Source of the DNA: an uncultured Gammaproteobacteria bacterium
GTDB taxonomy: Bacteria; Patescibacteriota; Microgenomatia; UBA1406
Direction: 5' to 3'
Assembly: GCA_964414145.1 (NCBI GenBank)
Contig: CAYPVH010000001.1
Coordinates: 220,851 to 284,850 of the forward strand
DNA: 64,000 bases
A model generated the notes under the pieces. It made no database searches. It was given only the letters and a program-made list of their open reading frames with translations, and was not told the DNA's origin. Position numbers and translations under genes: made by a program. The stretch's first letter is position 1. Every line of letters starts with the position of its first letter. Positions 1,045 through 48,979 of the stretch are shown piece by piece.

Positions 1045-1344
1045 TTAAATATTTTTTAATGTTCTTTTAAGAATTTGTTTTAGCTGATCTCTGCCAAAGC
1101 CGGATTTCAAAAATACTTCTCTAGCTTTAGCATCAGCTTTATTGATGAAGTATTCGTAATGAATAAGGCTGAAAGGAGTACGTAGACGGGTAGATTTAAC
1201 CTGATTTTTAGAGTGTTGAGTTAGACGTATTTTTAAATCGGATGTAAAACCAATATACAAGCCTTTATCTCTTAAAAAATACAAAACATAAACATAATAC
1301 TTGTGATTGCCGTAAGAAGGAATAGAAACGTCTAACGTTTCCAT
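1045..1344 (-). CDS. GIY-YIG nuclease family protein (small, URI-domain only), copy 1
   Basis: Motifs YYVYVLY…GLYIGFTSDLKIRLTQH…E match GIY-(x10)-YIG + R + H + E. The start is moved to the ATG at 1344 because the track ORF's extension (to 1488) overlaps the tmRNA 3' end and hairpins. TATAAT lies 9 nt before the ATG and there is no SD. Confidence 0.75.
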   Translation of the reverse strand: METLDVSIPSYGNHKYYVYVLYFLRDKGLYIGFTSDLKIRLTQHSKNQVKSTRLRTPFSLIHYEYFINKADAKAREVFLKSGFGRDQLKQILKRTLKNI

Positions 1345-1370
1345 GTATTTATTATTATATAAAAAAGATG

Positions 1371-1387
1371 GGGGCGTCAAACGCCCC
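1371..1387 (-). terminator. Rho-independent terminator of ssrA
   Basis: On the minus strand the sequence reads GGGGCGTTTGACGCCCC followed by CATCTTTTTT. It is the third of three GC-rich hairpins after the tmRNA. Confidence 0.6.
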
Positions 1388-1395
1388 TCGCTTAA

Positions 1396-1455
1396 GCCAC
1401 GTTTGACGTGGCTTACAAACGCTGTTTCATTATGGTAGAACCGCGTTTGACGCGG
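1396..1455 (-). repeat. Two further hairpins in the tmRNA trailer sharing the same loop (CCGCG-TCAAA-CGCGG and GCCACG-TCAAA-CGTGGC)
   Basis: Read directly from the sequence at 1441-1455 and 1396-1412. The first hairpin begins at the CC that follows the tmRNA discriminator base. Confidence 0.7.
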
Positions 1456-1837
1456 TGGAGATGCCCGGAGTTGAACCGGGGTACACAAAAAGTAAGCCCT
1501 AAAGATTTTATAGCAAGTTTAGTTCAACAATAAAGTTAAACAGTTTTAAGACCGTTTGTGTTTCGGCGCCCGTAGGTAGGTCTTTTCCCGGTTTGCCAAA
1601 GCCGAAAGGTTTGCACTAAATACAGCTATCGGCGTCTGCTGTACTTAATGTCCCGCCAAGCGGGAAAAGCTGTTTACGCAGTTGCATAAGCAAAACGGTT
1701 AGCAAAAGCTCCCGCTTGCATAGCTTCTAGGTATTCAGCTTCTTCTGCGTCATTATCTGCAGTTGTTTTTCCTGTTTTACGGACAAGTCCGACCTGCAAT
1801 CTTTAAAGCACAATTTGTGGCAAAGCCCGTCATCCCC
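1454..1837 (-). ncRNA. ssrA: tmRNA (SsrA), one-piece
   Basis: The 5' end GGGGATG pairs with CATCTCC at the 3' end, giving a G3:U70 pair. The T-arm is CCCGG-TTCAACT-CCGGG, followed by discriminator A and CC. An internal reading frame ends …GCT AAC CGT TTT GCT TAT GCA ACT GCG TAA (…ANRFAYATA*). The gene is immediately downstream of smpB. Confidence 0.85.
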
Positions 1838-1917: not shown

Positions 1918-2370
1918 TCACTTCCTCAAATATTCTTTCACCATCTGTTTGTCTTTTCGCTTAATGTCTCGTTCTTTTTCAACAGACTTTATTTGGTGTG
2001 CTTTTCTACCTTTTGAAAGAGCAATCTCAAACTTAATGAGATTGCCCAGATTATAACATTTTAGCGGAATGATTGTCAAACCAGCCCGTTCTTTAATTTT
2101 ACCCCTTAATTTTGCCAGCTCGGCTTTATTTAATAAAAGCTTTCTTGAACGGGTAGGGTCATAGCTGTCTACTTGGGCATATTTATAAAGCGGAATATCT
2201 GCATTCACTAAATAAAGTTCATTCCCAACAAAACGAATATAGCTCCCTTTTAGGTTAAGTCTACCGCTTTTTATAGATTTAACTTCGGGTCCGGTTAATT
2301 TTATTCCTGCTTGGTATTTGCTAAGCACTTCATATTCACGAAGCACCTGGCGGTTTACAATCGGTTGCAT
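1918..2370 (-). CDS. smpB: SsrA-binding protein SmpB
   Basis: 150 aa. It carries the segments LTGPEVKSIKSG…LNLKGSYI, DIPLYKYA and YDPTRSRKLLLNKAEL, typical of SmpB. It is adjacent to the tmRNA. Confidence 0.9.
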   Translation of the reverse strand: MQPIVNRQVLREYEVLSKYQAGIKLTGPEVKSIKSGRLNLKGSYIRFVGNELYLVNADIPLYKYAQVDSYDPTRSRKLLLNKAELAKLRGKIKERAGLTIIPLKCYNLGNLIKFEIALSKGRKAHQIKSVEKERDIKRKDKQMVKEYLRK

Positions 2371-4701: not shown

Positions 4702-6399
4702 CTAATCAGTTATAACTTTATTGCCAATAACTTTTATAGCCACAAATATAAGTCCAACAAAACTTAAAACCGTTATTAGGTTTCCCAGTTTTTCAATGTT
4801 TGTTTGTCTGTAAATAATTGTTATCCCTGCCGGCTTTGTAAGTATTATTTTCGGTCGCCCCAGCTTGTCGAATGTTGTTGGCGTTACTTCTTTATTGTTA
4901 ACCAAAATCTGCCAATAGGGAAAGTAGTGAATGTTTATAAAAATCGTTCCTTTTTCTTTAATAACTACTTGTTTTTCAAAAACTTCGTTTTTTAAAACTT
5001 TAAACTTTGCTTTTGTAGTAACGGGAAGTTTTGTATTAAGCCTCAGTTTACGATAATTGCTTGTTTTTCGATTAAGAGTGGCCCAGTAAGGGTAATCTGC
5101 TTTACTGCTGATGTATTCGGGCATCATATAGGCCATATCTTTGGTGCGATACTCGTACGAGTCAAATTTTTGGTTATAAGCAGAAAACTTATACATCGGT
5201 TTAATTAAGTATTTTCGGGCGGTAACAAAACTAACAATAATTAAAAAAAGAATGGCAATATTTTTGAAGGGCATTTTTAATTTCTCAAAAAAATAAGCTC
5301 CTAAATAGGCGCCACCAAACATGGCAGACAGCATAAAGCGCCAAGGGAATTGGAAGAGCGCTACAATGGGCGAAAACAAATCCCAAATTGGTTTTGAATA
5401 ACTTGTTGTCATGAATAACGAGCCCAAAAACAACAAGGCAATGAAAATAGTTATTTTTGTGTTTGTGTCTGTTTTCTTTTTTAACAAAACCTGCAAAGTA
5501 ACCGGTACCAGCCCCAAAATTCCCAGTAAAAAGTGAATTTTTCCCAACTTAAAACTCATCATATCGCCTTCGCAGCCTGGCAGTGACGGGCCAAAGAACC
5601 AACCATTTGAAGACCAAAATTGCTTAATACAAAGAAAATGGTCGCCATAATAGTAGTTGCCAATTATGTTTTTGGTTTGGGTAAAGCCGGTCTCAAATAG
5701 GGCCGGCAGTAAAAAATAAGCCCCTAAACCCAGCCCAAAAAATATTGCCGCCAAATTCCTCTTTTTGTTTTTCAGGAGCAGTGAAAAAACAATTGTTAAG
5801 GGCAAAGCAAGCAGTGAAAAAATGTTATGAACTGTAAACAAAGCAAACAACGAAAGACCGGTTAAGAAGAACATTGATTTGGAGGCGGCACGCGAATTTT
5901 CAATTAGTAGTGCCAAGCAGAGGGGCAGTAAGGCTAAAAACCAAACTTCGGCCAGGTTACCCCGGATCATAATTTCGGTGGCAAAATAGGTGGAAGTAAC
6001 ATATAAAGTGGCCCCCAGCAAACTGGGCAAATAACTAAAATTTCTTTTTAAAAAATAAAACATTGCTAAATAACTACCAACAAATGCGGCAAAAAAAGAA
6101 AATTTAAGTGCAGCAACCGTACTTAAACCAATAAAGCTAAGAGCTGCAGTTAACCAATAAGCAAGTGGGGCGTAGAAGTTAAACAAAGGAAAGCCCAAAT
6201 TAAAAGATAATTCGGGTGCTAACCGCGGCGGTAACTGGTCTTGTTTTAAATTAAGAACAAACTGGTGTACCCGAGCCAGTTGGGTTTCGTCGTGAAAATC
6301 AAACATCTGCCCGCCGAGTGGGTTTAAAGAAGGCAGGCAAATATAAATTAGCAAACCCAAACTTAAAGCAAATAGCAACTGTTTAAATCTGTTTTTCAT
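4702..6399 (-). CDS. Large polytopic membrane protein, probable glycosyltransferase-C-fold or YfhO-like
   Basis: Has about 12 or more hydrophobic helices and a soluble C-terminal domain. The start is set at MKNRFKQLLF (ATG 6399), just after the stop of the upstream gene. Confidence 0.45.
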   Translation of the reverse strand: MKNRFKQLLFALSLGLLIYICLPSLNPLGGQMFDFHDETQLARVHQFVLNLKQDQLPPRLAPELSFNLGFPLFNFYAPLAYWLTAALSFIGLSTVAALKFSFFAAFVGSYLAMFYFLKRNFSYLPSLLGATLYVTSTYFATEIMIRGNLAEVWFLALLPLCLALLIENSRAASKSMFFLTGLSLFALFTVHNIFSLLALPLTIVFSLLLKNKKRNLAAIFFGLGLGAYFLLPALFETGFTQTKNIIGNYYYGDHFLCIKQFWSSNGWFFGPSLPGCEGDMMSFKLGKIHFLLGILGLVPVTLQVLLKKKTDTNTKITIFIALLFLGSLFMTTSYSKPIWDLFSPIVALFQFPWRFMLSAMFGGAYLGAYFFEKLKMPFKNIAILFLIIVSFVTARKYLIKPMYKFSAYNQKFDSYEYRTKDMAYMMPEYISSKADYPYWATLNRKTSNYRKLRLNTKLPVTTKAKFKVLKNEVFEKQVVIKEKGTIFINIHYFPYWQILVNNKEVTPTTFDKLGRPKIILTKPAGITIIYRQTNIEKLGNLITVLSFVGLIFVAIKVIGNKVITD

Positions 6400-22535: not shown

Positions 22536-22546
22536 TGTTTTCTCTG

Positions 22547-22651
22547 AGCGGTGGACGAGACTTCCCAGAACATTCTGTTCTGGACCAGTCCCGAACTTAT
22601 AGTTCGGGGGAACTCGTGACCTGTCGCCTAGGGCGACCATTCTACCCAACT
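22547..22651 (-). pseudogene. 5'-truncated, diverged tRNA copy (tRNA-Gly-related) with a 46-nt insertion in the T-loop
   Basis: It aligns to tRNA-Gly from the D-loop to the 3' end (…AAGTTGGGTAGAATGGTCGCCCTAGGCGACAGGTCACGAGTTC[46 nt]AAGTCTCGTCCACCGCT). The last 19 nt are identical to tRNA-Gly. No 5' acceptor strand is present. Confidence 0.7.
22564..22609 (-). mobile_element. 46-nt palindromic mini-element (two hairpins, termini CCCCGAAC…GTTCTGGG) interrupting the T-loop of the tRNA copy
   Basis: The minus strand reads CCCCGAACTATAAGTTCGGGACTGGTCCAGAACAGAATGTTCTGGG, lying between TTC and AAGT of a TTCAAGT T-loop. Confidence 0.55.
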
Positions 22652-22653
22652 TG

Positions 22654-22726
<73 letters not shown>

Positions 22727-25825: not shown

Positions 25826-25826
25826 G

Positions 25827-25898
25827 TGCTCCAGCCTGGGATCGAACCAGGGACCCCCATTTTATAAGAATGGTGCTCTACCACTGAGCTACTGGAGC
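25827..25898 (-). tRNA. tRNA-Ile (anticodon UAU)
   Basis: GCTCCAG-TA-GCTC-AGTGGTA-GAGC-A-CCATT-CTTATAA-AATGG-GGGTC-CCTGG-TTCGATC-CCAGG-CTGGAGC-A. The anticodon reads TAT, not CAT. Confidence 0.8.
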
Positions 25899-39578: not shown

Positions 39579-39598
39579 AAAAACACTTATTAGTGTCT
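39579..39598 (-). terminator. Putative terminator after GIY-YIG copy 2
   Basis: The minus strand reads AGACACT-AATA-AGTGT followed by TTTTT. Confidence 0.4.
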
Positions 39599-39677
39599 AG
39601 AGAGATGGATTCCCCGATGTTACTTTGTTCATTGGGATTAACTTACAGTAATCCTAGTGATTATTCAAAAGAATTTT

Positions 39678-39971
39678 CTATTCTACGGAATATGCGTTCT
39701 GGACTAGAGATTTTAGACTTTCTTTAAGCATTATTCTCAAAGTCTTCTTACCGCAAGTGGTTTTGAAGTACTTTTCTCTTCTTGTTGCATCATGTTTTGA
39801 ATAGAAGAATTCACAAAACAGTAGTGTGAACGGTCTTCGAAAAGAAGTAGCCAAAGAGTGACCGTTGACATGGGCAGTTAATCTGTTGTGAAGATTTGTT
39901 GTATAGCCAATATAGAAACACTTATCCTTTAAACTATACAATACGTAAACACAATACTGGAGTTTCTTCAC
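39678..39971 (-). CDS. GIY-YIG nuclease family protein (small, URI-domain only), copy 2
   Basis: Motif YCVYVLYSLKDKCFYIGYTTNLHNRLTAH…E. The track start (TTG at 40004) lies inside a hairpin, so the in-frame GTG at 39971 is preferred. TATAAT lies 9 nt upstream and there is no SD. Confidence 0.7.
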   Translation of the reverse strand: MKKLQYCVYVLYSLKDKCFYIGYTTNLHNRLTAHVNGHSLATSFRRPFTLLFCEFFYSKHDATRREKYFKTTCGKKTLRIMLKESLKSLVQNAYSVE

Positions 39972-39993
39972 AATACTATAATTATAGACGTTT

Positions 39994-40078
39994 TTGACTC
40001 TCAAGAGTCAAGTAGTGTAGTGAAGTAGAACAGCAGTTCGCTTCACTACCATGAAGTCAACTGCGTTGTACTTCATGG
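39994..40078 (-). repeat. Three consecutive hairpins filling the tRNA-Tyr to GIY-YIG spacer
   Basis: The minus strand reads CCATGAAGT-N12-ACTTCATGG (40049-40078, starting with the tRNA CCA), then TAGTGAAG-N15-CTTCACTA (40018-40048), then TTGACTC-TTGA-GAGTCAA (39994-40011). Confidence 0.75.
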
Positions 40079-40161
40079 TCCAGGGGGATGGATTCGAACC
40101 ATCGAAGACTAATGTCAGCAGTTTTACAGACTGCTCCGTTTGGCCACTTCGGTACCCCTGG
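40076..40161 (-). tRNA. tRNA-Tyr (anticodon GUA), class II long variable arm, CCA encoded
   Basis: CCAGGGG-TA-CCG…CGG-A-GCAGT-CTGTAAA-ACTGC-(14-nt variable arm)-GATGG-TTCGAAT-CCATC-CCCCTGG-A-CCA. Confidence 0.9.
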
Positions 40162-40174
40162 GATGTGGGTTTTA

Positions 40175-40292
40175 TCCCAGAAGTAGCTTTTTCGCTACTG
40201 CGAAATTAGCACTTCGGGATCCCGTATTTCTACGCCAAATTCTATCATAAATTAAGGGATTTTATCAAAAATTTGGCTAGAAAGTACTGGGA
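40175..40292. mobile_element. About 118-nt structured mini-element bounded by TCCCAG…CTGGGA, between tRNA-Tyr and its decayed 5'-half copy
   Basis: The plus strand starts TCCCAGAAGTAGC…(inner hairpin TTTCGC-TACT-GCGAAA)…GCACTTCGGGATCCCG (40175-40224). A second hairpin GCCAAATT-N-AATTTGGC follows. The element ends AAGTACTGGGA at 40292. Confidence 0.5.
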
Positions 40293-40327: not shown

Positions 40328-40463
40328 AATAGATGTATTGTATCAATTTGACAATATAAACGCAAAATATGTTTAACAGGTCAGACCTGTTACGGTTACT
40401 ATTATTTAAATCTAATCTGCTTACTATAAAAGACTTGTTGTTAAATGATAAAATAGGTTAATT

Positions 40464-40945: not shown

Positions 40946-40988
40946 TAACTAGCTAATATTTACTAATAACTGAGAACTGAATGACTAA

Positions 40989-41108
40989 TTTTGACTGACA
41001 ACTGACAACTGAGAACCGACAACAGACAAATTTTGACTGACAACTGACAACTGAGAACCGACAACAGACAAATGTTGACTGACAACTGACAACTGAGAAC
41101 CGACAACT
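40989..41108 (+). repeat. 42-nt tandem repeat, about 2.9 copies, rich in CTGACAAC
   Basis: The unit TTTTGACTGACAACTGACAACTGAGAACCGACAACAGACAAA recurs with a period of 42 (unit starts 40989, 41031, 41073). The array runs up to 5 nt before tRNA-Ser(UGA). Confidence 0.85.
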
Positions 41109-41113
41109 AAATT

Positions 41114-41200
41114 GGAGAGGTGGCAGAGCGGCCGATTGCGCACGCCTTGAGAGCGTGTTTCGTCGTAAGGCGAACGTGGGTTCGAATCCCACCCTCTCCG
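41114..41200 (+). tRNA. tRNA-Ser (anticodon UGA), class II
   Basis: GGAGAGG…CACGC-CTTGAGA-GCGTG-(long variable arm)-GTGGG-TTCGAAT-CCCAC-CCTCTCC-G. Confidence 0.9.
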
Positions 41201-41320
41201 CACTGATATTTCTTAGCGAGTAATCGAGCTTAGAAACAACAGTGCCCGCCAGTAAATGAGAGAAAAAGCCGTGTGTGCTTGTCCTGAGTATCTCGAAGGA
41301 AATATAACCCCATAAGACTT

Positions 41321-41368
41321 GTTCACGAATATGGCGGGCGTATTTACAAGCTACGGCGAGACAAAGTC
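41321..41368 (+). repeat. 48-nt module homologous (45/48) to the sequence immediately 3' of GIY-YIG copy 3
   Basis: GTTCACGAATATGGCGGGCGTATTTACAAGCTACGGCGAGACAAAGTC matches the reverse complement of 48326-48373. No ORF lies between it and tRNA-Ser(UGA). Confidence 0.8.
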
Positions 41369-41541
41369 AGCCGGACAAAAGCGTATGTGGGATTTATATT
41401 TACTGAATCAAAAAAAAGCAAAGTTGTAGAATTATTCCCACTATACATCAGTATGGGTTAAGTGATATAATTTACCTTTCTCTTCTACACTTAAGTCCCT
41501 GTGGTTAGTGCAAGAGATAATATTATTTGAAAACTAAAAAA

Positions 41542-43386
41542 ATGGAAATTAGGAATATTGCAATTATTGCTCACGTTGATCATGGTAAAACTACACTGGT
41601 AGACGCCATGCTTAAGCAAACAAAAACGTTCAGAGAAAATCAAAAAGAAATGAGCGAAGATTTAATAATGGATTCAAACGACTTGGAACGGGAAAAAGGC
41701 ATTACCATTTTGGCTAAAAATACATCGGTTTTTTATGAAAACACAAAAATAAACATCATAGATACACCCGGCCACGCCGACTTTGGTGGCGAAGTAGAAC
41801 GTACCATAAATATGGCTTCCGGCGCTATTCTTTTGGTTGACGCAGCTGAAGGGCCACTACCCCAAACTAAATTTGTATTAAAACAAGCCTTAAAAAATCG
41901 ACTAAAAATAATTCTTATAATCAACAAGATAGATAAACGAGATGCAAGACCAAGTGAGGTAATAACCGAAGTTGAAAACTTGTTTCTAGAACTTGCGGAA
42001 GACGAAACGTCACTCGAATACATTACTCTTTTTGCAGTTGGTCGAGACGGAAAAGTGTTTTATGAGTTACCAGAAAACTATAGTCAGGAAACACCCGGTA
42101 ATTTGGTACCGCTATTTAACACGATAGTCAAAGAATTTCCTAATACATCGATATATAACGAAGAACCGCTTCAAATGGTAATATCAACCCTAGATCATGA
42201 TAGTTATGTAGGCAAGTTATGCATTGGTAAAGTTAGTCGGGGTACACTACATAAAGATCAGTCAATTGTACTAGTTGATGAAAATAATATAGTTGGTAGT
42301 TACAAGGTGCAAAAGTTGTTTACTACAAACGGATTAACCCGGCAAGAAATAGATAGGGTAGAATCGGGTGACATTGCCACATTGGCAGGAATTGCAGAGC
42401 TAACGATTGGTCAAACAGTCTGTGACCCGGAAAACCCAAAAAGTTTGCCCAAAATTGCAATTGAAGAACCAACCATAAAAATGACTGTTGGCCCCAATAC
42501 TAGCCCGCTTTCGGGTAGGGAAGGTAAATATTTTACCTCTCGCCAACTTAAAGCCCGTCTTTACAAAGAAATCGAAACAAATCTTGGGCTAAAGGTTGAA
42601 GATTATGATGAAGGGGCAAAGTTTGTAGTTTCGGGTAGGGGCGAACTTCATTTGTCCATACTTCTGGAACAGATGAGAAGGGAAGGCTATGAAATGGAAG
42701 TTTCTAAACCAGAAGTTATTTATAAAACCATTAATGGCAAAATTTATGAATCGTTTGAAGAGGTCACTATAGAAGTTGACGACGAATTTTACGGTCTGGT
42801 AAGTGAGGAAATGGGCAAACGAAAAGGTATTATGCAAGATATGAAAAAAGAAGGCAGCAGAGCAAGATTAGTCTATAAAATTGCCAGTCGAAACCTGCTT
42901 GGTATTCGTAATGCTTTAATGACTAAAACCAGAGGCACAATGCAAATTTACACCTATTTACTGGGTTATGAACCCAAGGGGCAAAAAATGGAAAGCATTC
43001 GAAACGGCGCTTTAGTTGCGGTAAAGAGTGGTATAGCCGTTAATTATGGTATTGGCAAAGTACAAGACCGAGGAGTGTTGTTTGTTGGGTCGGGTACCGA
43101 AGTTTATGAAGGCATGATTGTTGGTTTGGCCAATAAACCCATGGACATTGAAGTTAATATTTGTAAAGAAAAACAGCTCACCAATAACCGATCGGTTGGT
43201 GAAGGCGTGTCAACACAAATCACGCCACCAACAATTTTAAGTTTAGAGCAGTGTATAGATTTAATTGGTGACGACGAGTTACTCGAAATTACACCCACAA
43301 GTCTTCGTTTAAGAAAAATGTGGCTAAACACGGTTTTGCGAAGAGTTAAGACCAGAAATAAAAAAGATTTAGAACAATCAACATAA
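41542..43386 (+). CDS. typA: Translational GTPase TypA/BipA
   Basis: G1 AHVDHGKTT, G3 DTPGHADF, G4 NKID, plus EF-G-like domains and a C-terminal domain. The ATG at 41542 is preferred over the TTG at 41527. Confidence 0.9.
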   Translation: MEIRNIAIIAHVDHGKTTLVDAMLKQTKTFRENQKEMSEDLIMDSNDLEREKGITILAKNTSVFYENTKINIIDTPGHADFGGEVERTINMASGAILLVDAAEGPLPQTKFVLKQALKNRLKIILIINKIDKRDARPSEVITEVENLFLELAEDETSLEYITLFAVGRDGKVFYELPENYSQETPGNLVPLFNTIVKEFPNTSIYNEEPLQMVISTLDHDSYVGKLCIGKVSRGTLHKDQSIVLVDENNIVGSYKVQKLFTTNGLTRQEIDRVESGDIATLAGIAELTIGQTVCDPENPKSLPKIAIEEPTIKMTVGPNTSPLSGREGKYFTSRQLKARLYKEIETNLGLKVEDYDEGAKFVVSGRGELHLSILLEQMRREGYEMEVSKPEVIYKTINGKIYESFEEVTIEVDDEFYGLVSEEMGKRKGIMQDMKKEGSRARLVYKIASRNLLGIRNALMTKTRGTMQIYTYLLGYEPKGQKMESIRNGALVAVKSGIAVNYGIGKVQDRGVLFVGSGTEVYEGMIVGLANKPMDIEVNICKEKQLTNNRSVGEGVSTQITPPTILSLEQCIDLIGDDELLEITPTSLRLRKMWLNTVLRRVKTRNKKDLEQST

Positions 43387-48129: not shown

Positions 48130-48343
48130 CCTAGTTATTCTGAATTGTACTAAATTAGATTTTTTTGTCAAATTAATTTTACTCAAAATATTCCTATTCT
48201 TATTATTGTAGGTATCGTTATTGACCAGTTAAGAACGAATTTTGTTTACGCTCTTAATCGGTAGACTTTGTCTCGCCGTAGCCGAGCTTCAGCGAGGCGA
48301 ACCCTGCTTTCGCTTTTATCAGGCGGACTTTGTCTCGCCGTAG

Positions 48344-48681
48344 ATTGTAAATTCGCCCGCCGTATTCGTGAACTTAGTATTTGAAAAAATGTTTCTTCAT
48401 AAACGCCCTACCAGAACCAGACTTTAAATATTTTTCAAATTTAAAAGCTGTAATTTCTTTATCAAATGCAAAGTATAGTTTCAGAGCTACTGGTGTTCTA
48501 TTTTTGGTTGCCTCAATGTAATTACTGTTATGCATTTGTAATCTGTCTTTTAGGTTATTTGTACATCCAATATATGTTCTGTTGTCATTACAAATAAGAA
48601 CATAAACGTAGTACATGGAATAATTGTAGCGGATTTGTATCGCTAAGCCTCAATAAATTTTGACTTTTTTTAGACAAAATT
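48344..48681 (-). mobile_element. 338-nt cassette carrying GIY-YIG copy 3, inserted in the loop of a repeat-unit hairpin
   Basis: Its boundaries are defined by where unit 2 departs from units 1 and 3 (after TTCGCCTC and before CTACGGCGAGAC). It contains a 5' hairpin GCCTCAAT…ATTGAGGC, a TACAAT box, the ORF and a 30-nt 3' tail. Confidence 0.55.
48374..48616 (-). CDS. GIY-YIG nuclease family protein (small, URI-domain only), copy 3
   Basis: MYYVYVLICNDNRTYIGCTNNLKDRLQMHN…E. TACAAT lies 6 nt before the ATG and there is no SD. Confidence 0.7.
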   Translation of the reverse strand: MYYVYVLICNDNRTYIGCTNNLKDRLQMHNSNYIEATKNRTPVALKLYFAFDKEITAFKFEKYLKSGSGRAFMKKHFFKY

Positions 48682-48753
48682 GAGGCGAATCCCGCTTTCG
48701 CTTTTATCAGGCGGACTTTGTCTCGCCGTAGCCGAGCTTCAGCGAGGCGAAGG

Positions 48754-48839
48754 CGGAGGAGGTGGGATTTGAACCCACGTGAGCCAAAAGGCTCGCAGGT
48801 TTAGCAAACCTGTGCAATGGACCACTATGCGACTCCTCC
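48754..48839 (-). tRNA. tRNA-Ser (anticodon GCU), class II
   Basis: GGAGGAG-TC-GCA…TGC-A-CAGGT-TTGCTAA-ACCTG-(17-nt variable arm)-GTGGG-TTCAAAT-CCCAC-CTCCTCC-G, followed by CC. Confidence 0.9.
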
Positions 48840-48856
48840 AATGAACCTGCCTTTTA

Positions 48857-48862
48857 ATTATA
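48857..48862 (-). promoter_or_regulatory. -10 box (TATAAT) for tRNA-Ser(GCU), duplicated at 49068-49073
   Basis: On the minus strand TATAAT is separated from tRNA nucleotide 1 by 17 nt. The same hexamer sits in the 85-nt duplicate. Confidence 0.4.
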
Positions 48863-48889
48863 ACCCAAAGCCCCTTTCGGTTTAGTCCC

Positions 48890-48979
48890 GAAAAACTTTC
48901 TCAACGGAACGTTGAGATTAGTTTTCGGGATCCCGAAGTACTAAACCCGATGAGTTTCATCGGGAAGTTACTTCTGGGA
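48890..48979 (-). mobile_element. 90-nt structured spacer or mini-element between the two copies of the tRNA-Ser 5' region
   Basis: The minus strand reads TCCCAGAAGTAAC-(hairpin CCCGATGAAACTCATCGGG)-TTTAGTACTTCGGGATCCCG, then the hairpin GAAAAC-TAATCTCAACG-TTC-CGTTGAGAAA-GTTTTTC. Its ends resemble those of the tRNA-Tyr and tRNA-Gly elements. Confidence 0.55.

Follow-up and report, generated by a model that had tools for sequence, protein, structure and literature searches.

A family of small GIY-YIG nuclease genes that stand next to tRNA and transfer-messenger RNA (tmRNA) genes probably represents widespread selfish cassettes, which insert at these RNA genes while one copy of the gene is kept intact. 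The family came to light in a 64-kb stretch of DNA (contig CAYPVH010000001.1, positions 220,851 to 284,850 of the forward strand; GC content 34.8%), which we call the window, and was followed into other genomes. Insertion at the RNA gene itself is well supported by the comparisons given below, and from them we infer that the nuclease would drive the process by homing. The closest loci come from Roizman-, Levy-, Gottesman- and Daviesbacteria; therefore, judged by these relatives, the window is part of a Microgenomates-type genome of the candidate phyla radiation (CPR).

Nine RNA genes were predicted in the window by ARAGORN, and all nine were confirmed by Rfam. A six-frame hmmsearch of the 64 kb, with a profile built from the three nuclease proteins (g1, g2, and g3), recovered exactly three GIY-YIG open reading frames (ORFs). 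Each of them follows, in the same orientation, the gene for tmRNA, tRNA-Tyr, or tRNA-Ser-GCU, from which a spacer rich in hairpins separates it. An earlier note on this DNA had described three co-oriented modules of RNA gene, spacer, and GIY-YIG ORF, and ARAGORN, Rfam, Pfam, and the six-frame search agreed with it. The parts of the three modules are as follows.

1918-2370, minus strand: smpB, upstream of the tmRNA gene
1454-1837, minus strand: tmRNA gene (ARAGORN; Rfam RF00023, 77.9 bits)
1345-1456, minus strand: module 1 spacer, with perfect triloop hairpins (folding z score -5.57; terminator and promoter scan)
1440-1456, minus strand: hairpin h1, ACCGCGT-CAA-ACGCGGT, abutting the tmRNA end
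1393-1415, minus strand: second hairpin of module 1
1371-1387, minus strand: hairpin h3, GGGGCGT-TTG-ACGCCCC, then a T-run
1354-1359, minus strand: TATAAT of module 1
1322-1344, minus strand: hairpin h4, containing the g1 start codon
1045-1344, minus strand: g1, a GIY-YIG ORF of 99 amino acids, Slx1/UPF0213-type (Pfam PF01541, E 2.7e-12, 47.3 bits)
40076-40161, minus strand: tRNA-Tyr(GTA), CCA encoded (ARAGORN and Rfam)
39972-40077, minus strand: module 2 spacer, with three hairpins (folding z score -5.50)
39678-39971, minus strand: g2, a GIY-YIG ORF of 97 amino acids with a GTG start and an alternative TTG start at 40004 (E 7.9e-16, 58.6 bits)
39595-39612, minus strand: degenerate copy of the tRNA-Tyr segment from T-loop to 3' end (local alignment, 15/18)
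48752-48839, minus strand: tRNA-Ser(GCT) (ARAGORN and Rfam)
48617-48757, minus strand: module 3 spacer, with repeat families D1 and D2 (folding z score -4.05)
48374-48616, minus strand: g3, a GIY-YIG ORF of 80 amino acids (E 4.9e-14, 52.8 bits)
48232-48373, minus strand: right flank of module 3, in which the spacer unit is repeated about 1.7 more times (repeat copies 96%, 83%, and 70%; blastn)

The association with RNA genes extends far beyond the window. The comparison set comprises 80 loci (numbered with L) picked by protein alone, by matching the three-protein alignment against one genome per GTDB species. The linkage count covers L001-L059 plus L061, with RNA genes from ARAGORN and Rfam combined and a more distant Flavobacterium-type subfamily counted apart; the controls were 413 ORFs of at least 100 amino acids from the same loci. 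As a result, 38 of 66 GIY-YIG ORFs had a co-oriented RNA gene within 300 nucleotides (nt) upstream, 12 had one only within 150 nt downstream, and 16 had neither, against 14 of the 413 control ORFs (3.4%) with a co-oriented RNA gene within 300 nt upstream (odds ratio 39, Fisher p 8e-27). The count of small GIY-YIG ORFs next to tRNA and tmRNA genes that the earlier note had suggested, run here with 300 nt, therefore gave a strong enrichment over the control ORFs, and at the control rate the three linked ORFs out of three in the window would arise by chance with a probability of about 4e-5. Of the 16 unlinked ORFs, at least 9 either have pseudo-tRNA pieces as neighbours or form the second or third unit of an array. 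The RNA partners include tmRNA (12 times) and 19 different tRNA species, and the hosts belong to CPR, Omnitrophota, Ignavibacteriota, Bacteroidota, Bdellovibrionales, Planctomycetes, and others. Among the complete genomes with members of the family are CP066689.1 (Roizmanbacteria) and OZ246412.1.

The use of ARAGORN as the sole caller of RNA genes was abandoned; the first count made in this way, 35 of 90, was an underestimate. Rfam added five tmRNA genes missed by ARAGORN (in L002, L004, L010, L011, and L028), which RF00023 detects at 55-130 bits. Because ARAGORN misses CPR tmRNA genes, tmRNA surveys in CPR that use this program only undercount them.

One and the same cassette can follow different RNA genes. 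Leaders of the g1 clade share a single 5' end, CC followed directly by GCGTCAAACGCGGCTTCGCC, in several contexts: after tmRNA in the window and in L001-L004, L010-L012, L014, and L139; after tRNA-Lys (L007), tRNA-Gly-TCC (L008), and tRNA-Gly-GCC (L009); and after a tRNA-Glu remnant (L019) and an 8-nt, tmRNA-like remnant (L005). The 13-mer GCGTCAAACGCGG has 25 occurrences in 1.14 Mb, all inside cassettes. In 17 loci (one copy per locus, L139 and L142 having the same sequence), it comes straight after a CC that belongs to an RNA gene or, in two of the 17 (L005 and L019), to a 3'-end remnant. Two copies follow the ORF (L001 and L007), and the rest, on the other strand, correspond to hairpin h3, in which h1 is repeated in inverted form. 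The spacer of g3 is similar to the one that follows tRNA-Ser-GCU in L057 (Wolfebacteria), and g3 pairs with the tRNA-Ser-GCU-linked protein of L057 in a neighbour-joining tree. In this tree, tmRNA-linked members fall in at least five separate places, and the tRNA-Lys and tRNA-Gly members are nested inside the tmRNA clade, which shows both target fidelity and target switching. These sequence comparisons indicate that the cassette travels as a unit.

Filled and empty sites were compared with SmpB as the bait, which is independent of the nuclease. Of the 37 tmRNA genes for which 300 nt or more of downstream sequence were available, five were followed by a GIY-YIG ORF, one of them degenerate, and the comparison of loci with and without the ORF, as proposed earlier, hence revealed a presence/absence polymorphism. 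The locus with the closest SmpB relative (L082, 64% identity) is empty, its tmRNA ending in ...CCACCA before unrelated AT-rich sequence. The gene order is tmRNA, a simple terminator or nothing, and comF in the empty sites L084, L090, L096, and L147, and tmRNA or a remnant of it, the cassette, and comF in the filled sites L004 and L005. In filled tmRNA sites, the first G of the cassette takes the place of the A of CCA; likewise, the tmRNA 3' end in the window reads ...CTCCACC, and the first base of the cassette stands in for that A.

The cassettes are also accompanied by duplicated pieces of their targets. A near-exact 14-nt copy (at most one mismatch) of the gene's own 3' end was found within 1.2 kb downstream of 20 of 110 RNA genes and upstream of none of the 110; these copies begin in the T-loop (AATCC or AGTCC ...). 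Where the ORF is upstream of an intact tRNA, the 5' part of the tRNA is repeated before the ORF in 10 of 12 cases (0/200 shuffles each), and this copy is often broken by a palindrome such as CCTGCCTGCCGGCAGGCAGG. With the ORF downstream of the RNA gene, a significant copy follows the ORF in 7 of 39 cases. An intact gene upstream thus goes with a copy of the 3' part, and an intact gene downstream with a copy of the 5' part. Recombination between a unit of tRNA copy plus ORF and a chromosomal tRNA would give both arrangements, and an exchange on one or the other side of the hairpin insertion would decide which of them results.

Full units were found in L043, L044, L049, L053, and L055/L054, where an intact tRNA is followed by one or more units. 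In each unit, a short spacer leads to the ORF and then to a full-length pseudo-tRNA, whose U8-A9-G10 serves as the stop codon of the ORF. Small GC-rich hairpins are inserted in the loops of the pseudo-tRNAs, most often in the T-loop after GGTTC. In the isolate Flaviaesturariibacter aridisoli 17J68-15 (L054/L055), at least four identical 430-nt units stand behind tRNA-Pro(CGG). Cassettes measure about 0.33-0.65 kb (330-650 nt), and decay takes the form of frameshifted, internally deleted, and ORF-less units, as in the first unit of L049, in which the ORF is internally deleted. A group I intron was rejected as the explanation of the split or duplicated tRNAs, since the ORF is followed by a whole copy of the tRNA and not by a 3' exon. 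The enrichment, the shared cassette, the filled and empty sites, the tRNA duplications, and the arrays strongly support the earlier suggestion that the cassette has the RNA gene itself as its target or site of insertion.

Further repeats were observed in and around such loci. The palindrome CCTGCCTGCCGGCAGGCAGG and close variants recur inside the pseudo-tRNA pieces of different CPR genomes, at the following positions.

L020, about 2240-2300 and about 2690-2760: CCTGCCTGCCGGCAGGCAGG-type palindromes
L039, about 4940-4990: CCTGCCTGCCGGCAGGCAGG-type palindromes
L056, about 4900-4990: CCTGCCTGCCGGCAGGCAGG-type palindromes
L059, about 2270-2340: CCTGCCTGCCGGCAGGCAGG-type palindromes

In other pseudo-tRNAs, mini-hairpins of the form TCCCG..CGGGA or CCCCG..CGGGG sit precisely in the D-loop, the variable region, or the T-loop. 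Upstream of smpB in some CPR metagenome contigs, there are arrays of GAAGTCSGACTTC-type perfect palindromes about 23 nt apart, which resemble the hairpin cores of the cassettes and are not next to a GIY-YIG ORF.

L094, 3322-3368: GAAGTCSGACTTC-type palindrome array
L098, 240-263 and 3324-3347: GAAGTCSGACTTC-type palindrome arrays
L109, 2160: GAAGTCSGACTTC-type palindrome array

In Flavobacterium sp. ACAM 123 (L073, 4278-6176), three tandem 646-nt units, 87-96% identical, each contain a more distant GIY-YIG ORF, and no tRNA or tmRNA was detected near these units.

Within the window, two further RNA genes are followed by ORF-less relics.

22653-22726, minus strand: tRNA-Gly(GCC)
22546-22652, minus strand: ORF-less pseudo-tRNA-Gly directly after tRNA-Gly(GCC)
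41114-41201, plus strand: tRNA-Ser(TGA)
41321-41394, plus strand: ORF-less relic, 120 nt downstream of tRNA-Ser(TGA) (alignment and blastn)

In the pseudo-tRNA-Gly, a GTCGCC/GGCGAC hairpin stands in place of the anticodon arm, the T-loop is interrupted after GAGTTC by two perfect hairpins (44 nt), and the 3'-terminal 18 nt match the real gene exactly. The relic behind tRNA-Ser(TGA) comprises 63-75 nt that are 87-90% identical to the sequence starting right after the g3 stop codon (48373-48311), with 90% identity over the 63-nt stretch 41321-41383; no ORF was found between tRNA-Ser-TGA and the next gene (typA/bipA-like, 41527-43386). A cassette or relic is therefore present at five of the nine RNA genes of the window, three with an ORF and two as ORF-less relics. 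The one-to-one tie between ORF and RNA gene that had been claimed did not hold, as the ORF accompanies only three of the nine.

The modules themselves retain few traces of an insertion. About 66 nt past the g2 stop codon lies the remnant of tRNA-Tyr (GAATCCATCTCTCTAGAC against GAATCCATCCCCCTGGAC), a weak match whose score was reached by 2 of 500 shuffles; its position and kind agree with the exact remnants in related loci. In module 3, the spacer-unit copies on the right flank mean that g3 is bracketed by direct repeats. The three proteins share only 43-44% pairwise identity and so, as the earlier note had concluded from their divergence, are not recent duplicates. Since, in addition, only module 2 keeps a (weak) tRNA remnant, the three copies in the window look old and largely vertically inherited.

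The spacers of modules 1-3 (109, 104, and 135 nt) are strongly structured, with folding z scores of -5.6, -5.5, and -4.1 and none of 200 shuffled sequences equally stable. In each spacer, the last bases of the RNA gene, (A)CC or CCA, form part of the first stem. In module 2, the CCA of tRNA-Tyr is paired with trailer sequence (CCATGAAGT...ACTTCATGG), and in module 3, a 62-70-nt multi-hairpin unit, its outer stem built with the last bases of the tRNA, is followed by a second hairpin and then by TACAAT. The -10-like hexamers (TATAAT, TATAAT, and TACAAT) end 9, 9, and 6 nt ahead of the respective start codons. In module 1, h3 and its T-run are terminator-like by the scan, and the loop and 3' arm of h3 supply a TTGACG -35 box. 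Sequence and folding were thus in accordance with the earlier description of the spacers, of the first hairpin at the CC or CCA, and of TATAAT or TACAAT near the start codon.

The accompanying claim of leaderless mRNAs stood only in part. The hexamers are present and a Shine-Dalgarno motif is absent, but neither is specific to the cassettes, given that a Shine-Dalgarno-like motif was found in only 2 of 53 long ORFs of the window and TAnAAT lies 3-10 nt ahead of ATG in 21 of the 53. The scarcity of Shine-Dalgarno motifs together with the start-proximal -10 box across the window therefore makes the leaderless layout a habit of the genome, not a property of the modules, and it was rejected as a hallmark of the cassette. 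Leaderless mRNAs may be the main expression mode of this organism.

An RNAalifold analysis of ten cassettes gave four hairpins, h1-h4, with compensatory changes in four of the six pairs of h3. Both h1 and h4 are sequence-invariant in the ten cassettes, although the proteins are only 62-76% identical, and distant cassettes hold h1 in place with fully compensated stems (CCAAGT/ACTTGG in L006 and CGAGT/ACTCG in L015). Hairpin h4 encodes the N-terminus of g1, which AlphaFold predicts to be disordered; because the start-codon hairpin codes for a segment with predicted disorder, its conservation is at the nucleic-acid level. Two other ideas about the hairpins were rejected. A perfect 7-bp palindrome GTYNRAC at the apex, as a dimer-binding or restriction-like site, fits only a subset, many copies reading GTCAAAC or GTTTGAC; such apex hairpins are 23 times denser in cassette leaders. 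A genome-wide family resembling repetitive extragenic palindromes was discarded for the module 1 hairpins, whose motif, outside the cassette, occurs in the window in a single hairpin at 40374-40392.

Three further features of RNA genes in the window were recorded as well. The regions upstream of tRNA-Tyr (40162-40240, minus strand) and tRNA-Ser-GCU (48840-48950, minus strand) share a long imperfect hairpin with CGGGATCCCGAA...TAAACC at its core, which could be a promoter-associated element or part of a mobile unit. At 40983-41107 (plus strand), a 42-nt unit is present in three tandem copies (97% matching), the last of which stops 6 nt short of tRNA-Ser-TGA; with a TTGACT-like hexamer in each copy, this may be a reiterated promoter region. 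A tRNA-Ile with the anticodon TAT, which is uncommon in bacteria, lies at 25826-25898 (minus strand), paired with a tRNA-Arg-CCG 52 nt upstream.

All three nucleases scored above the PF01541 cut-off (47.3, 58.6, and 52.8 bits for g1, g2, and g3 versus 22.6). The residues Y19, Y30-I31-G32, R40, H44, and E76 are invariant in 31 sequences and likewise in the alignment of g1, g2, and g3. The Pfam domain spans residues 1-75 or 15-84 of these 80-99-amino-acid ORFs, with nothing after it; the C-terminal Asn motif (motif E) is absent, and the ORFs stop 4-21 residues past the Glu helix region. By sequence, the closest solved structures are those of the UPF0213 proteins EF2693 (1YWL, E 8e-12) and BH0048 (1ZG2, E 4e-11), and SLX1 (PDB 7WME) was matched with an E of 3e-3, whereas the NCBIfam group I intron endonuclease model reached 19 bits versus a cut-off of 56. 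The AlphaFold model of g1 (mean predicted local distance difference test, pLDDT, 85.9, with residues 1-11 below 50) consists of a single domain, and its predicted secondary structure, E-E-H-E-H-H, corresponds to the GIY-YIG fold, a three-stranded sheet flanked by helices. When this model was submitted to Foldseek, UPF0213 and Slx1 structures (6SEH, 4XM5, and 7CQ2) occupied ranks 1-11, followed by the UvrC N-terminal domain.

On sequence and modelled fold, the nucleases are thus assigned, as catalytic-domain-only members, to the Slx1/UPF0213 branch, which includes the structure-specific Slx1, not to the I-TevI/Seg branch, and the parallel with SegB drawn in the earlier note does not extend to the type of nuclease. 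A defence system reading was also dropped: the PADLOC defence models gave nothing significant, with no match for g1 and g2 and only marginal ones for g3 (E at least 1e-3).

A course of events can be proposed for the insertion. The nuclease would nick or cut tRNA-gene DNA, with the T-loop as the recurrent junction, and the target would possibly be recognised as a stem-loop or branched structure, as by Slx1. The cassette would be copied in by recombination, and the tRNA-derived sequence on either side of the ORF would serve as portable homology arms. One gene copy would stay intact, and the other would turn into a pseudo-tRNA that gathers hairpin insertions. The CPR-type leader hairpins probably terminate the RNA gene and carry the cassette's own promoter, and they probably bury the start codon, keeping nuclease expression low; hairpins that sequester the start site limit translation of phage homing endonuclease genes. 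If true, insertion needs only near-universal tRNA sequence, not the surrounding genome, and homology arms of tRNA sequence would therefore explain the spread across phyla, the target switching, the tandem arrays, and the hairpin-decorated pseudo-tRNAs. We put forward more tentatively, as a possibility short of an even chance, that these cassettes form a new selfish class in which an Slx1-like nuclease gene invades tRNA, tmRNA, and perhaps rRNA genes by target duplication, not by splicing.

Several observations weigh against selfish cassettes that move by homing. Neither Pfam nor the model shows a DNA-binding domain in the 80-99-amino-acid proteins, so sequence-specific homing of the I-TevI or SegB type is not expected. 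A nuclease aimed at the tRNA gene also requires that the intact resident copy escape cutting. No tRNA or tmRNA remnant was detectable after g1 or g3, and the Flavobacterium-type subfamily (L060 and L062-L080) has no tRNA link (0/21). A search of viral contigs found no relatives and thus gave no candidate vector; carriage by phages was rejected on this ground, with PHROGs matches only marginal. Finally, the tmRNA-linked clade is kept across many Microgenomates genomes with invariant leader hairpins, and the stop codon of the nuclease overlaps the comF start in L004/L005; the tmRNA-linked ORF looks like a stably inherited, possibly useful gene.

These last points are what would be seen with a domesticated host nuclease that has a job at tRNA and tmRNA, either in RNA processing or quality control or on DNA structures or R-loops, co-transcribed or co-regulated with the RNA gene, the hairpins being RNA processing or regulatory elements. 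We regard this explanation as unlikely. It would account for the retention of the ORF after tmRNA by many Microgenomates genomes, with 60-76% identity between the proteins, h1 and h4 invariant, and h3 covarying, for the tight packing against comF, and for a first hairpin that always pairs with the CC(A) end of the RNA. UPF0213 is, moreover, widely conserved and, to our knowledge, an orphan family of about 20 years with no function assigned. Prokaryotic Slx1-like domains have been described as fused to, or in operons with, a TrmH-like tRNA methyltransferase and COG4123 methyltransferases, and the TrmH-like fusion was read by the authors as a possible link to RNA metabolism (Dunin-Horkawicz et al., PMC1564403); these associations are an independent hint of a tRNA connection. 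However, the distribution is patchy, with 5 of 37 tmRNA genes filled and the closest SmpB relative empty, and three divergent paralogues sit at three RNA genes in 64 kb. Frameshifted, internally deleted, and ORF-less copies occur, as do identical tandem arrays, pseudo-tRNA duplications bracket the ORFs, and targets switch within one protein clade. Such patchiness, decay, arrays, duplications, and switching are not expected of a housekeeping gene.

The ORF might instead be a passive passenger, cargo or a leftover, with the duplications being attachment-site (att) scars made in trans by a tyrosine integrase or a recombinase of the Xer type, which we consider rather improbable. Direct repeats from the T-loop to the 3' end are reportedly the classic integrase crossover signature at tRNA and tmRNA genes, tandem build-up at a tRNA gene is typical of integrative elements, and units without an ORF exist. 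Nevertheless, the 330-650-nt units hold the nuclease ORF alone, and the 20 ORFs flanking repeat-bounded cassettes at 10 loci are all housekeeping genes, with no integrase, other recombinase, or transposase among them, for which reason cargo of integrase islands was rejected. The same protein family is the constant partner over at least six phyla and about 20 tRNA species, which is hard to reconcile with random cargo, and the 5'-part duplications (10 of the 12 loci with the ORF upstream of the tRNA) are not a product of integrases that target 3' ends. Mere coincidence, or an assembly artefact at tRNA genes, is effectively refuted: most comparison loci are metagenome-assembled genomes, but the linkage differs from control ORFs of the same loci with a Fisher p of 8e-27, the junction sequences are conserved, and the same architecture is found in an isolate genome (F. 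aridisoli) and in complete chromosomes.

No earlier description of small GIY-YIG cassettes linked to tRNA or tmRNA was found in the full-text literature searched, which covers not all journals, and the family is apparently undescribed, as the earlier note had presumed. It is unusual in that the nuclease is Slx1-like and consists of the domain alone, that the target is duplicated instead of being restored by splicing, and that the pseudo-tRNAs contain hairpin insertions. The nuclease domain of the eukaryotic Slx1-Slx4 endonuclease is homologous to the cassette proteins. Slx1 cuts branched and stem-loop DNA, not a specific sequence, and is a host repair enzyme, not a mobile gene; its shape-specific cutting therefore suggests how a nuclease without further domains might recognise tRNA genes or palindromic hairpins by shape. 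The window proteins differ from Slx1 in lacking both a RING/PHD domain and an Slx4 partner. With UPF0213/YhbQ (COG2827), the cassette proteins have in common a length of about 80-100 amino acids, the domain-only architecture, the catalytic set, and the lack of the Asn motif, whereas the cassette genes differ in being tied to tRNA and tmRNA, bracketed by tRNA duplications and hairpin leaders, and mobile-like in behaviour. For UPF0213/YhbQ, no function or genomic rule was reported in the literature searched. The Slx-1 family was described without motif E and with Tyr, Tyr-x-Gly, Arg, His, and Glu conserved (PMC1564403).

SegB, in the tRNA cluster of phage T4, resembles the cassettes as a GIY-YIG gene beside or between tRNA genes that is present or absent among relatives. 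It cuts the tRNA gene region of an endonuclease-less T4-like phage and is copied in with flanking markers (PMC2330249). However, the Seg and I-TevI proteins have about 200-250 amino acids and a DNA-binding domain, whereas the cassette ORFs lack this domain and belong to a different GIY-YIG branch. The cassettes further differ from SegB in being chromosomal, in occurring in several phyla at many tRNAs and tmRNA, and in carrying duplicated target pieces, a feature that classic intronless homing does not leave behind. Integrase islands at tRNA and tmRNA genes are alike in the 3'-region target, the regenerated intact gene, and the tandem accumulation, and also in the partial 3' copy from the T-loop, which is present at many related loci and, in the window, at tRNA-Gly. 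By contrast, the cassettes have no integrase in the unit or nearby, are 10-100 times smaller, and also show 5'-part duplications, and their pseudo-tRNA copies can be full length with small hairpin insertions in the loops.

GIY-YIG ORFs were also reported in non-intron insertions of CPR rRNA genes, where they are sparse and probably do not spread by homing (Tsurumaki et al. 2024, PMC11270868). By their description, these insertions are like the cassettes in their CPR hosts, their GIY-YIG ORFs, their location at structured-RNA genes, and in being neither group I nor group II introns; they differ in lying inside rRNA genes, and tRNA or tmRNA linkage, target duplication, and hairpin leaders were not described for them (PMC11270868). 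In addition, GIY-YIG genes are among the predicted horizontal transfers from Patescibacteria (PMC12455944).

If the proposed behaviour is true, it would be a third strategy for a selfish nuclease gene in an essential conserved gene, besides the two known ones, self-splicing introns or inteins and the use of a neighbouring intergenic gap: the target is duplicated and one copy is kept intact. It would also give the orphan UPF0213/YhbQ family its first biological role, with a concrete, testable genomic behaviour. Such cassettes would account for a share of the tRNA fragments, partial or pseudo, by which tRNA annotation is confused in genomes of CPR and other bacteria. F. aridisoli 17J68-15 is a cultured organism with such units, so the mechanism is directly testable, and a nuclease that recognises tRNA-gene DNA by shape could serve as a laboratory tool.

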